From NCBI GenBank assembly GCA_027002375.1, contig JALWZX010000060.1:1-42482 (forward strand): a DNA stretch of 42,482 nt, read 5' to 3'. Below are positions 2,613-42,482 of this stretch, in pieces. The stretch comes from a candidate division WWE3 bacterium (GTDB lineage Bacteria > Patescibacteriota > WWE3 > 2-01-FULL-39-13). The notes under the pieces were generated by a model, which did no database searches, was not told the DNA's origin, and worked only from the letters and a program-made list of their open reading frames with translations. A program made the position numbers and the translations under genes. Within the stretch, counting starts at the first letter, position 1. Each line of letters opens with the position of its first letter.

Positions 2613-3377
2613 ATGAAAGGAATAATACTAGCAGGTGGCACAGGTTCTAGACTTAGACCTGTTACGTTTGTTGTAAATAAGAACATATTGCCAGTTTACA
2701 ATCAGCCGTCGATATTTTATTCGGTCGATTTATTAAGAACAGCTGGTATAAAAGAAATCGCAATCATCGCAGAGTATCACTATCTAGAAGATTTTATAAC
2801 AATACTAGGTAACGGTACTGATTTTGGCGTGAAACTTGAATATATTAGCGATACACCTTATAAAAAAGGTCCAGCTAGTGCAATATATTATGCTAAAGAT
2901 TTTATTGACGGGGAATTCGTAGCGGTAGTTTTCGCTGATGGCATTTACGATTTAGACATAAGCGAAGATGTCAAAAACTTTTCAGGTGGCGCAGTGGTTT
3001 ATTTAAAAGAAGTTGATAATCCATCACAATTCGGAATTCATGAAATGAATAAAGACGGAAAGATAATTTCGATAGAAGAAAAACCTGAGAGGCCTAAGTC
3101 AAATTTAGCATATACTGGACTAACACTTTATGATGAAAAATTGGTTGATTACATTGAAATGATAAAACCAGGTCCAGGTGGTGAATATTACACCGTAGAT
3201 GTAAACAAAATTTATTTAGAAAGCGGTACATTAGAAGGTAAGGTGATTACTGAATTTTGGCAAGACATAGGAACATTTGATGGTTTACTTTCAGCTAGCA
3301 ACTATATGAAAGAGAGGTCAGAAAAACGGGGGCAGAAAAACATAGAACGAATCTCATTTAAGGATTTCACAATTTGA
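2613..3377 (+). CDS. Sugar-1-phosphate nucleotidyltransferase (RmlA/RfbA-like)
   Basis: MKGIILAGGTGSRLRP, EEKP..PKSNLA, WQDIGT motifs. Confidence 0.9.
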   Translation: MKGIILAGGTGSRLRPVTFVVNKNILPVYNQPSIFYSVDLLRTAGIKEIAIIAEYHYLEDFITILGNGTDFGVKLEYISDTPYKKGPASAIYYAKDFIDGEFVAVVFADGIYDLDISEDVKNFSGGAVVYLKEVDNPSQFGIHEMNKDGKIISIEEKPERPKSNLAYTGLTLYDEKLVDYIEMIKPGPGGEYYTVDVNKIYLESGTLEGKVITEFWQDIGTFDGLLSASNYMKERSEKRGQKNIERISFKDFTI

Positions 3378-3395
3378 TATTCACTTTCCACAACT

Positions 3396-3425
3396 AATGC
3401 TGACTGCGTAAGCTGTCGGCGTCTC
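3396..3425 (-). repeat. Degenerate single-hairpin relative of the first hairpin of the 117-bp repeat
   Basis: Reverse complement gacgccgacagcttacgcagtcagc resembles aacaccgacagtttacgctgttggc at 13802. Confidence 0.5.
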
Positions 3426-3470
3426 ACCGTTTTGTGATAAATAAACATCAACTCCGTTATAATTTATAAT

Positions 3471-9656: not shown

Positions 9657-12600
9657 TGGTAAATTTAAACAGTTTGCGTGATTTAGATGCGTTAAAGATA
9701 TCACTTGCTTCATCTGAAGCAATCCTTTCATGGTCATATGGTGAGGTTTTGAAACCTGAAACAATAAACTACAGAACATTTAAGCCAGAAAGAGATGGTT
9801 TGTTTTGTGAAAGAATCTTTGGTCCTGTCAAAGATTATGAATGTGCTTGCGGTAAGTACAAAAGAGTCAGATTTAAGGGTGTTGTTTGTGATAGGTGTGG
9901 CGTGCAAGTAACGTCTTCAAAAGTAAGAAGAGAAAGAATGGGGCATATAAAGCTTGTTTCACCTGTTGTTCATGTTTGGTATTTTAAAAATATACCTTCA
10001 GTATTAGCAACTTTATTGGGAATTCCACCAAGAAGTTTAGAACTGGTGATTTACTTTTCATCATTCATAGTTACAGATATTGATCACGATGCAAAAGAAA
10101 AAGTCTTAGAAAGATTTGATGATTTAGCTGCAGAAGCAAGGGAACAGGCTGGTTTAGAAATAGAGAACCAAATTAGTGAAATATACGAGAAACTTGATGA
10201 AAAAATAAAAAGCATAACTACTGAACCAGAATCTAAATGGAATGAAAAAACAAAAGCAAAAATAGAAGATTTAAGAAAGGCAGTAGAAGATCAAATTGGT
10301 GAACTTAGAAACAAACAACTTGTAGAACAAGAGAAAGGCGAGTTAGAAATTAGAAAACAAGAAAAAAAGATAAAAGAAGTAGAACTTCATACAATAATGA
10401 CTGATAGAGAATATGTATTATTAGAAGATTATTTAGATGAATTTTGTGAAGTATCAATAGGCGCTGAGGCTATAGAGAAAATATTAGAAACTCTAGATGT
10501 TGAAAAATTAGAAAAAGAATTAGAAGAATCTATTTTAACAGCAAAAGCTTCACAGATTGAAAAGCTTAAGAAAAGATTGAGAGTTGTTAAGAGTTTTAAG
10601 AACGGAAAAGTAGATCCCAAAAACATTGTTATTGACGTTTTACCAGTGATTCCACCAGATCTTAGACCTATGGTTCAACTTGAAGGTGGTAGATTTGCAG
10701 CATCAGATCTAAATGATCTATATAGAAGAATTATTAACAGAAACAACAGATTAAGAAGGTTGTTAGACCTTGGAGCTCCAAATATAATCGTCAGAAACGA
10801 AAAAAGAATGCTTCAAGAATCTGTTGATGCCTTAATTGATTCGTCAAAAGTTAGAAAATCTAGAACAAGAGAAAGAAAAGTATATAGATCAATAGCAGAT
10901 TCTATAAAAGGTAAGCAAGGTTATTTTAGAGCTAATTTATTGGGTAAAAGAGTTGATTATTCTGGACGATCTGTAATCGTTTCTGGACCATCACTTAAAA
11001 TGCATGAATGTGGTTTACCTGTAGATATGGCATTTGAATTATTTAGACCATTCTTACTAAGGGAAATCATGGCAAGGGGTTTAGCACCAAACATGAAAAC
11101 TGCTAAAAAAGTTTTAGAAGAACGATCAGGTGCAATATACGATATATTAGAAGAGTTAGTAAAAACAAGGCCAGTTTTACTAAATCGTGCACCTACACTT
11201 CACAAGTTAAGTATTCAAGCGTTTTATCCAAAATTGGTGCACAATAAAGCTATTCAGCTACATCCTGTAGTTTGTGCCGGATTTAACGCTGATTTCGATG
11301 GAGATCAAATGGCTGTTCACTTGCCTTTGTCAGAAGAAGCCGTTAAAGAGAGCATTGATCTAATGCTTTCTACCAATAACCTTTTAAAACCTGCAGATGG
11401 TGGTGTCATTACCGTGCCTTCAAAAGAAATGGTTTTGGGGATTTATTATTTAACAAGTATAAATCCACATTTTTATATGTACAAAGTTATTTTTGCAGAT
11501 GAAAAAGAGGTTATGCAGGCCTTGGGAAATAATGTCATTAAGTTAAGACAAAAAATTAAATATTTGAAAGGCGATGAAGTTATAGAGACTTCTGCTGGAA
11601 GAATAATATTTAACGATTTTGTACCAGAAGAGTTAAGATTTATTAACGATGAAATTGGTAAAAGTGGAGTTAAAGTTTTAGTACAGAAATCTCTAAAATT
11701 AGTTGGAGCAGAACGAACAATAGAATTTATCGATAACTTAAAGAAATATGGATTTATTTATTCTACTAAATCAGGTGTATCACTTTCTATTTTTGATACA
11801 CAAAAGCCAGCCGACATGGAAAAAGTTATAAAAGAAACAAAGAAAAAGGTAGCTGAAATTGAGCAAAATTATTACATGGGTTTGATTACTAGAGAAGAAA
11901 TGATAAAACTATCATTAAAAGTTTGGAAAGAAGTAGAAAATCATTTCGACGAGACAATTTTGAGTCACTTGGACCACGAGAATCCTGTAAATATTATTAT
12001 TAGAGCAAAAGCTGGTAAAGCTTCACCAGTTCAAATCAGGCAAATCGCCGCTCTAAAAGGGCTAATCGCTGATCCAAAAGGAAAAACAATAGAATTACCT
12101 GTTTTAGGAAATTATGCTAATGGGTTATCAAGTTTTGATTACTTCTTGTCAGCACGTGGTGTTAGAAAAAATTACATGGACAAGGGGCTAGGAACAGCTG
12201 ATGCAGGTTACTTAACTAGAAGACTTGTAAATGTCGCACAAGATATATTAACTAGAGAAGATGATTGTGGAACCAAAGCGTACAGAACTGTTAAAAAAGG
12301 TGATAATACACCAATTATGGAATGGAATGAAAGAATTATTGGTCGATATTTGGCCGATACATTAAAAGATTCAAAAGGTAAGATAATAGGTAAAAGAAAT
12401 GAATTAATTACTGAGGAGATGGCAAAGAAAATTGGTGAATCTGATATTGATGAGGTTCGAATTAGATCTGTATTAACCTGTGAAAGTGAATACGGAGTTT
12501 GTTCCAAATGTTATGGTACAGATTTGTCTAAGAACGAAGAAGTTAAAATTGGAACAGCAGTTGGTATAATGGCAGCACAATCCATAGGTGAACCGGGAAC

Positions 12601-38333: not shown

Positions 38334-38375
38334 AGTATACAAATTATATGGCACATACTTGTCATTCGACCTTAT

Positions 38376-38423
38376 ATAGTAATTAGCAATAAGGAACCCC
38401 GAGCTTTAACTCGTGGAGTTTCA
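38376..38423 (+). mobile_element. Degenerate partial copy (right end) of the IS200/IS605-like mini-element
   Basis: atagtaattagcaataaggaaccccgagctttaactcgtggagtttca aligns without gaps to atagtaattggcgataagaaaccacgggctttagcccgtggagtttca (42387-42434). Confidence 0.8.
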
Positions 38424-38437
38424 TTTTATATACTTAG

Positions 38438-41803: not shown

Positions 41804-42481
41804 TTAATAATTTGTAGACTTGAGGTTAAGTTCGTATATTAATATACTTTCTCTGTTGGTAGAAGTTTTAGCTACGATGGTTCCATATGGGTCAACTATC
41901 ATTGTTTCACCTATGCTAGTTGTAACAAAAACTTTTTCAGACTTTGTTCTTATGGTTTGTTTGTCTGCATAATTTACATACAGAAAGTAACAACGGTTTT
42001 CTATTGCTCTAGCTCTTGTCAATGTCTGAACAATGTTCGTCTCAATATTTTTTGGAACATATTTTTTATATATGTAACTATCTTCATGCGACCATAATGA
42101 TATGTTAATAATCATGTTTATATCTTTTGAATATTTGCTAGATAACGATGGGGAATTTAAATCTGCGCATATTTGAATTGCAACTAAATTATTATTAAAT
42201 GCAACAAATTCTAATTTATCAGTATTGTCATTACTTAGAACTCTCTTTTCGTCTGCCCATAAATGATTCTTATAATACCAGTGAAGAATCTCTCCATTCC
42301 AATCGACAAAACAAGTTGAATTATAATATTTATTATCGCCAAACTTAAAACCACGCACTTTAGTGCGTGGATGGAGTTGGTCAACAATAGTAATTGGCGA
42401 TAAGAAACCACGGGCTTTAGCCCGTGGAGTTTCATTATTCTCTTTAAGAATAAAACTTCCAGGAATAATGTTTATCTTACG
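41804..42481 (-). CDS. Carbon-nitrogen hydrolase (nitrilase superfamily), 5'-partial, with an in-frame insertion
   Basis: Frame is open from the window edge: INIIPGSF...YYNS...YYKNHLW (catalytic K), QICADL (catalytic C), RARAIEN, IVDPYG. Confidence 0.88.
   Translation of the reverse strand, partial: RKINIIPGSFILKENNETPRAKARGFLSPITIVDQLHPRTKVRGFKFGDNKYYNSTCFVDWNGEILHWYYKNHLWADEKRVLSNDNTDKLEFVAFNNNLVAIQICADLNSPSLSSKYSKDINMIINISLWSHEDSYIYKKYVPKNIETNIVQTLTRARAIENRCYFLYVNYADKQTIRTKSEKVFVTTSIGETMIVDPYGTIVAKTSTNRESILIYELNLKSTNY
42333..42434 (+). mobile_element. ~100-bp non-autonomous IS200/IS605-end-like palindromic element (PATE/MITE-like)
   Basis: Hairpins ccacgcac-ttta-gtgcgtgg and ccacgggc-ttta-gcccgtgg, 10-bp IR ttatcgccaa/ttggcgataa, end GGAGTTTCA; second partial copy at 38376. 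Confidence 0.8.
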
Positions 42482-42482
42482 T

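Follow-up and report, generated by a model that had tools for sequence, protein, structure and literature searches.

A 102-nt segment at positions 42334–42435 (plus strand) of the DNA analysed here, inserted in frame in a gene of the nitrilase superfamily, most likely represents a non-autonomous element derived from the IS200/IS605 family of insertion sequences (ISs), that is, a palindrome-associated transposable element (PATE), which behaves like a Rickettsia palindromic element (RPE); we assign this reading a probability of about 0.8. The whole stretch analysed, called the window below, is the entire contig C60 (42,482 nt) of a candidate division WWE3 bacterium, the draft genome of which (G000) amounts to 811 kb in 77 contigs with 33% GC and is 76% complete. 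The reading is based on the identity of the right end of the element to that of an IS200 bearing a Y1 transposase, together with the layout of TTTAT, hairpin, and TTCAT that recurs in metagenomic IS200 loci. In the excerpts of the literature on which all comparisons with published systems are based, PATEs are defined as having similar near-terminal palindromes without terminal inverted repeats (TIRs) or target duplications (PMC3119063), and RPEs are described as small palindromic repeats (~100–150 bp) that lie in frame in unrelated protein genes and add a conserved peptide at fold-compatible sites (review, PMC10969869).

The nitrilase gene, its insert, and the limits of the element

The host gene (41804..42481, minus strand) encodes a carbon–nitrogen hydrolase of the nitrilase superfamily (PF00795; E = 4.5e-20), with its stop at 41804 and its 5′ end open because the contig ends there. 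As noticed in the first-pass annotation of this DNA, the minus-strand open reading frame (ORF) is stop-free through ...INIIPGSFILKENN-ETPRAKARGFLSPITIVDQLHPRTKVRGFKFGDN-KYYNSTCFVD..., in which the insert ETPRAKARGFLSPITIVDQLHPRTKVRGFKFGDN is preceded by ...IPGSFILKENN and followed by KYYNSTCF...; the minus-strand reading of the 102-nt element is ETPRAKARGFLSPITIVDQLHPRTKVRGFKFGD(N). The full form of the protein, P0001 (301 aa), is 100% identical to all 225 residues encoded in the window, and its N-terminus is intact and alignable with those of homologous hydrolases. The gene is therefore not broken upstream, an event that had been considered as a way in which the frame might have been preserved by chance. 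Exactly 34 residues are absent in all of the 15 aligned homologues (267–306 aa; 39–45% identical), with the gap located between IPGSF(I/V)RKxx and NKxYNS, in line with the insertion originally proposed. Residues E43, K147, and C181 are invariant across this alignment; the catalytic triad of the nitrilase superfamily is Glu–Lys–Cys. In the AlphaFold2 model of the hydrolase (mean predicted local distance difference test score (pLDDT), 76; predicted template-modelling score, 0.79), residues 93–123 show pLDDT < 50 and form a coil between strands 86–90 and 127–135, so that the model places the insert in a low-confidence loop, as had been supposed. The empty site is inferred from distant homologues, because no orthologue of the hydrolase was found among 40 relatives. 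A sequence search of the PDB returned distant nitrilases only, and the one alignment running into the insert was spurious. Among the contigs of four public sequencing runs from two studies (X1–X4), none bridged the element in the hydrolase gene and no joints were present. The listed runs that contain this DNA include none of RNA.

The limits of the element were set with 35 aligned genomic copies. Conservation begins abruptly at TTTAT (42329..42333, plus strand; T31, T35, T35, A32, and T35 of the 35 copies), with no consensus further left, and closes with TTTCAT, the following base, testable in 33 copies, being T in 25 of these and A in eight. In two tandem arrays (C8:171 and C11:62744), the second copy starts with TATCGCC directly after the TTTCAT of the first (TTTCAT|TATCGCC); therefore, TTTAT is the conserved flanking target, or transposon-adjacent motif (TAM), outside the mobile unit, and the unit itself comprises 102 nt (42334–42435). 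This length agrees with the 34-residue gaps in the alignments of the hydrolase and of a GT4 glycosyltransferase described below. The element was thus correctly recognized in the first-pass annotation, with boundaries (42333–42434) one base off, and the left boundary, regarded there as ambiguous, is settled by assigning TTTAT to the flank.

From left to right, the layout is TTTAT / 17 nt ending in AAAA / hairpin 1 / ATGGAGTTGG... / ...GAAA / hairpin 2 / AG-TTTCAT. Judging from sequence and folding, the left subterminal hairpin IP_L (CCACGCAC-TTTA-GTGCGTGG; 42351..42370, plus strand) is located 17 nt from the left end, and the right subterminal hairpin IP_R (CCACGGGC-TTTA-GCCCGTGG; 42408..42427, plus strand) 8 nt from the right end. 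Both are perfect (8–9 bp) and together constitute a 24-nt direct repeat (83% alike), confirming the relatedness of the two TTTA-loop hairpins; the inverted repeat seen earlier around hairpin 1 extends to 14 nt (42329–42342 / 42394–42407; 93% complementary). The four bases 5′ of each hairpin foot are candidate guides: AAAA (42347..42350, plus strand) on the left, by analogy with IS608 (PMC3201880), and GAAA (42404..42407, plus strand) on the right, where GAAACCACGG is common to the right ends of the tnpA-bearing loci L164 and L171 described below. The right end is formed by TTCAT (42431..42435, plus strand), which is conserved in the copies as part of TTTCAT and would be the transposon-encoded motif (TEM) and cleavage site in the IS200/IS605 model; the TTCA end reported at first is present and is better given as this pentamer. 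The hairpin pattern has five matches in the window against 0.16 expected, a number reached in none of 100 shuffles, and folding relative to shuffled sequences gives z = −8.0 for the DNA and z = −7.25 for the minus-strand RNA. With 45% GC in the 102-nt unit against 33% in the genome, the insert is also GC-richer, as observed before.

This arrangement is comparable to that of IS608, which is flanked by its target TTAC, 19 nt from the left hairpin on the 5′ side, has its right cleavage site within its own sequence, 10 nt from the right hairpin on the 3′ side, and carries four-base guides 5′ of each hairpin foot (PMC3201880). The hairpin-to-end distances are 17/8 nt here against 19/10 nt in IS608, and the candidate pairing AAAA/TTAT, as read from the sequence, would conform to the TTAC/AAAG pattern of the latter (PMC3201880). 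A conventional miniature inverted-repeat transposable element (MITE), moved in cut-and-paste fashion by a DDE transposase and having TIRs and a target-site duplication, would typically share the ~100-bp size, the large number of copies, and the strong folding of the element, and would fit the presence of an internal 14-nt inverted repeat. However, the termini of the element (TATCGCC... and ...GTTTCAT) are not complementary, meaning that TIRs are absent, and the left terminus is matched instead by an internal site, in the single long inverted repeat that the element has. Moreover, the flanks of the 35 copies are otherwise unrelated and include no direct repeat that could represent a target-site duplication, and the tandem copies are joined head to tail at TTCAT, with the TTCAT of the first copy serving the second as target. 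An origin as a MITE is therefore highly improbable.

Probable kinship with transposase-bearing IS200/IS605 elements

The right end of the element recurs next to a transposase gene. Locus L164, from a genome of the same class (G072), encodes a 142-aa Y1 transposase (PF01797; E = 1.3e-38), and the 3′ end of its tnpA runs into AAGAAACCACGGGCTTTAGCCCGTGGAGTTTCA, with 33 of 33 nt identical to the right end of the element; the hairpin following this tnpA is identical to IP_R. In L171, from a genome (G011) of the same family-level group as G000, tnpA is followed by GAAACCACGG...CCGTGGAGAATCATT, and the left hairpin by ...GGTGGAGTTAGC. In L095, TTTAT, 16 nt, a hairpin, and ATGAATG are located upstream of tnpA, and a hairpin and GTTCATT downstream. 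We further surveyed 80 metagenomic loci encoding relatives of the L164-, L095-, and L171-type transposases, using regular expressions that were composed after inspection of those sequences. TTTAT, 15–18 nt, a hairpin, and GAATG were found in 25 of the 68 loci with enough upstream DNA, with no pentamer besides TTTAT among these 25, and a right hairpin followed by a TEM-like pentamer in 54 of the 76 loci with enough downstream DNA (TTCAT, 18; TTTAC, 15; TTCAC, 10; TTAAT, 9; others, 2). Taken with the absence of TIRs and target-site duplications, the TTTAT on the left, and the subterminal hairpins on the same strand, the 33-nt identity substantiates the affiliation with IS200/IS605 that the first-pass annotation had drawn from the ends alone.

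Several features of the element are also found in characterized systems. Like the PATEs of Haloquadratum walsbyi (HqIRS) and the PATE-like elements of Geobacillus stearothermophilus, it is too short to encode a transposase and has no TIRs and no target duplication, and it has two similar near-terminal palindromes, a 5′ distance larger than the 3′ distance, and a left targeting sequence comparable to their 4–6-nt ones (PMC3119063). The experimentally mobilised ISGst elements have TTTAT or TTCAT as TAM and TTCAC as TEM (PMC10055086), resembling the motifs described here. As in IS608, ISDra2, and ISGst, the subterminal hairpins are on one strand and an unduplicated target lies 5′ of the left end; insertion of those elements is biased to the lagging-strand template (PMC3201880, PMC5027513), as we propose for the present one. 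In contrast to those ISs, no tnpA or tnpB is located between its ends, and the register of its guide/cleavage pairing is ambiguous. Both PATEs and RPEs are already known (PMC3119063; PMC10969869). The element differs from the former in that its host is an ultrasmall bacterium of the candidate phyla radiation (CPR) type, that it measures exactly 34 codons with at least five copies in frame in conserved genes, for which the excerpted accounts of PATEs contain no counterpart, and that the assembly contains neither tnpA nor tnpB. No report of a MITE, PATE, or IS200 in CPR/Patescibacteria was found in the open-access main texts searched.

Based on the family to which it is assigned, a Y1 (HUH) TnpA, supplied in trans, would bind the two subterminal hairpins of the top strand. 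By cutting 3′ of both the flanking TTTAT and the terminal TTCAT, it would release the top strand as a single-stranded circle, and a further TTTAT (or TTCAT) exposed on the template of the lagging strand would receive this circle on its 3′ side, with no duplication of the target; copies landing in loops or linkers would persist as 34-residue in-frame insertions. No Y1 transposase that might supply this activity in trans was found in the assembly.

REP (repetitive extragenic palindromic) systems, like IS200 systems, use HUH/Y1 enzymes and hairpins, and the element might accordingly be a REP/REPIN-type repeat spread by a domesticated REP-associated tyrosine transposase (RAYT) instead of an IS200 TnpA. 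The class is rich in possibly RAYT-like ORFs: Y1_Tnp matches occur in 62 of its 134 genomes, several of which hold 4–8, and many of the matches are ORFs of 200–280 aa covering only profile positions ~39–119. Nevertheless, the two hairpins of the element are direct rather than inverted, its ends are asymmetric with IS-like TAM and TEM motifs, and its right end is the one shared with the 142-aa transposase locus L164. In addition, no RAYT-like ORF was found in G000 (best E = 0.051 with a hidden Markov model (HMM) of 16 such ORFs), and copies of the element sit in genes, while REPs are extragenic. Spread by a RAYT thus appears unlikely. Independently of the element, many of the class genomes G013–G048 possess 2–8 ORFs of 200–280 aa whose match to Y1_Tnp is confined to the C-terminal two thirds of the profile; as far as their sequences tell, these may be RAYT-like domesticated transposases.

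Copies in the genome and in other genes

The element belongs to a family that is multi-copy in G000, as had been anticipated for a transposase-less element. Searching with blastn gave 35 copies of at least 90 nt, and nhmmer with a 106-position profile gave 63 non-overlapping loci, 40 of which span at least 85 of the 106 positions; the remaining 23 are partial, being solo left or right halves. Four copies are 100% identical to each other (C60, C64:1335, C71:6238, and C22:20957). The high copy number is also seen in the X1–X4 runs, where, relative to the local flank, the summed contig depth over 42350–42449 is raised by a factor of ~5 to 88 (~77 in X1), and loose ends with unrelated flanks occur at 42328/42329 and 42435/42436. 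Six loci are found no more than 150 nt from one of the 154 contig ends, and C60 itself stops 46 nt after the element. In CPR genomes, such repeats lead to inflated or distorted ORF predictions and to broken assemblies. The window contains one further copy, a solo right half comprising the hairpin and AGTTTCATT (38374..38424, plus strand; profile positions 56–106; E = 4.5e-8), which is intergenic in the spacer between a stop at ~38330 and the next ATG at ~38439.

Five mid-gene copies (on C60, C64, C22, C35, and C71) are each exactly 102 nt with an open ORF. Besides the nitrilase, the conserved genes identified by ORF scan and Pfam encode an OGG/HhH-GPD glycosylase (C64:1335; residues 72–107 of the stop-to-stop frame), a GT4/GT1 glycosyltransferase (C22:20957; between its two Rossmann domains), a DUF6624 protein (in frame at C35:6039), and MnmA (C71:3458; in a variable loop, with the element read on its other strand), in keeping with the family of protein-expanding repeats suggested at first. 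In the glycosyltransferase, which carries one of the four identical copies, exactly 34 residues are absent in six of six close homologues (58–67% identical). The variable loop of MnmA that carries the copy is absent from the MnmA orthologue of the same genus; this copy, though diverged, has retained 102 nt and an open frame. The DUF6624 protein has a counterpart in another assembly, P0019, which shows 96% identity and the same insert, all eight differences lying elsewhere; the DUF6624 insertion has therefore persisted through some divergence. Copies of 99–103 nt with stops are intergenic or at gene ends, the majority of all copies are intergenic, and, judging by in-silico excision, no more than two insertions (C50 and C1:5839) seem to have disrupted a gene. 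The consensus is stop-free in three of the six frames, and its 34-codon length together with these frames accounts for the fact that insertions in coding sequence often leave the ORF open. By our own codon-phase reasoning, TTTAT/ATAAA can sit in a gene in five phases without forming a stop, and the three open frames should correspond to three of these. On this reading, the insert would be translated and tolerated by the host protein.

In being palindromic and located in frame in unrelated genes, here those of the hydrolase, OGG, GT4, DUF6624, and MnmA proteins, the element resembles RPEs, the likeness being a functional one. It differs from them in the host phylum and in that its ends tie it to the chemistry of IS200/IS605 TnpA with a TTTAT target, whereas the excerpted review of RPEs gives no mechanism (PMC10969869). 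For palindromic insertions in reading frames, classically represented by the Rickettsia elements, the element thereby offers a concrete transposition chemistry, with a Y1 TnpA, a TTTAT target, and insertion of a single strand.

Replication direction, approximated by the GC skew of the 5-kb flanks, provides a further line of evidence. The strand reading TTTAT...TTCAT is the G-rich strand at 44 loci and the opposite one at 15, or 36 versus 4 where |GC skew| > 0.1 (binomial p = 2e-7), and 18 versus 2 when each contig is counted by its majority. The G-rich (leading) strand would share the polarity of the lagging-strand template, which is the insertion site of IS200/IS605 top strands (PMC5027513).

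Several findings weigh against the assignment to an IS200/IS605-derived PATE with tolerated in-frame copies. The strand bias is confounded by gene orientation, as crudely predicted genes are co-oriented with the G-rich strand at 306 versus 76 (80%), and the discordant loci are few, with five following skew and one following genes, which is not significant. Left ends of IS200 resemble that of the element in layout, not in sequence, so that the search for a tnpA element with the same ends succeeded for the right end, in L164, and only in this looser sense for the left. For the candidate right guide GAAA, the pairing partner is CATT in one register and TTTC in another, and GAAA/TCAT misfits at the same offset. 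Looking for copies in relatives, as the first-pass annotation had suggested together with the genome search that gave the 35 copies, we found the full element in none of 40; matches were obtained in 12 of the 400 further genomes in the phylum sample, confined to the right half in 11 and to 28 nt at the left end in one, so that no direct parent IS emerged from these searches. In the 77 contigs of G000, PF01797 (Y1) had 0 matches, custom Y1 HMMs gave a best E of 0.025 and tblastn a best E of 0.095, and TnpB was not found either; as the assembly is 76% complete, the missing Y1 transposase is not proof of its absence. A weak HUH-like match (C26:9630–9884; E = 0.025) was rejected, being unsupported by tblastn or by neighbouring frames. 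Three open frames out of six are only marginally unusual (P = 0.035 against shuffles and 0.06 against genomic 102-mers). Finally, on the strand of the hydrolase mRNA (minus), the element contains two terminator-like hairpins, with three such sites in 783 nt against 0.4 expected, and the insert could attenuate the hydrolase gene instead of being harmless.

The last point leads to the alternative that the element serves primarily in regulation or as an RNA, be it a terminator/attenuator or a small RNA, and owes its spread to this usefulness; the genes with in-frame copies would then be disabled or attenuated, and their proteins not expanded. The terminator-like sites and the intergenic position of most copies are consistent with it, and the very young, 100% identical copies may still await purging. 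On the other hand, the orientation of the element follows the G-rich strand even in genes on the opposite strand (C60 and C64), the DUF6624 insertion is common to a strain with 4% protein divergence and an intact ORF, the diverged MnmA copy has kept its length and frame, and the catalytic residues of the hydrolase are intact. Rfam (E-value mode) matched no family at 42200–42482, where three chance-level matches only were obtained. We regard a regulatory module as improbable; it is compatible with transposition by TnpA, since it concerns the effect of the element and not its origin. Functional inference on this nitrilase should in any case allow for the 34-residue foreign loop and the two terminator-like hairpins in the mRNA.

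Going beyond the assignment as a PATE, one may speculate, with a rather small chance of being right, that the element represents a PATE lineage adapted to life inside genes, given its length of 3n, its stop-free reading in three of the five allowed phases, and a TTTAT/ATAAA target that is abundant in the Asn–Lys-rich coding DNA of such an AT-rich CPR genome. IS200/IS605 'peel and paste' would then be a general source of in-frame peptide insertions, comparable to RPE-like protein expansion, in ultrasmall bacteria and DPANN archaea.

Wider occurrence of the hairpin motif and copies at gene starts

The hairpin motif AAACCACG-NN-CTTTAG-NN-CGTGG was found in at least 106 contig stretches, with one genome per species, against a chance expectation of ~4 by a back-of-envelope estimate. 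Among the matches listed, the sources include DPANN archaea, Patescibacteria, Nitrospirae, Omnitrophica, and Pasteurellaceae, in addition to others, and 18 loci align with the element in the same two-hairpin layout. One of the matches, in the left hairpin of L083 (Gallibacterium faecale), belongs to a complete IS605, which has both tnpA and tnpB. Clusters of neighbouring ORFs at 111 public hairpin matches were examined as candidate partners and rejected as unrelated families, except for the IS605 of L083; the tnpA of L095 was found later. These families include ABC ATPases and response regulators, as named from sequence motifs, and, with confirmation by Pfam, an AAA_14/DUF4143 ATPase and a histidine kinase–response regulator. 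The motif marks related small elements in many uncultured lineages, and one covariance model could therefore annotate them widely. In L056–L157, from the DPANN groups Pacearchaeota, Woesearchaeota, and Nanoarchaeota, the same motif occurs in short multi-hairpin repeats that end in TTTTGAT and are often present several times per contig. No transposase accompanies them at a distance of up to 2.5 kb, and they probably represent additional families of PATEs.

Within G000, a left-half copy (C71:7976–8034) and a right-half copy (10107–10147) on the same strand flank a 16S rRNA gene (locus L288; C71:8410–9862; Rfam RF00177, 1368 bits); IS608 is described as favouring rrn operons (cited IS200/IS605 papers, in excerpt). 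Split half-copies were considered as possible ends of an autonomous element, and none was found between them in G000: the pair at C71:7976..10147 encloses the 16S rRNA gene, and that on C49 encloses an ORF with the sequence hallmarks of a metallophosphoesterase.

Some copies are located near the beginnings of ORFs. A 646-aa pilin-like ORF on C69, for which Pfam gave no match, includes an in-frame copy (3342–3448; L027) that separates a possible start (MNHKKLIKHNK) from the GFSIIELV motif; judged by the sequence, this copy would lengthen the prepilin-type leader by 36 residues. Three 101-nt copies (C11:49255, C11:45465, and C35:35364) lie just upstream of, or overlap, the N-terminal signal or transmembrane segment of three membrane or surface proteins. 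All three fall within the stop-to-stop frame and could supply or displace start codons.

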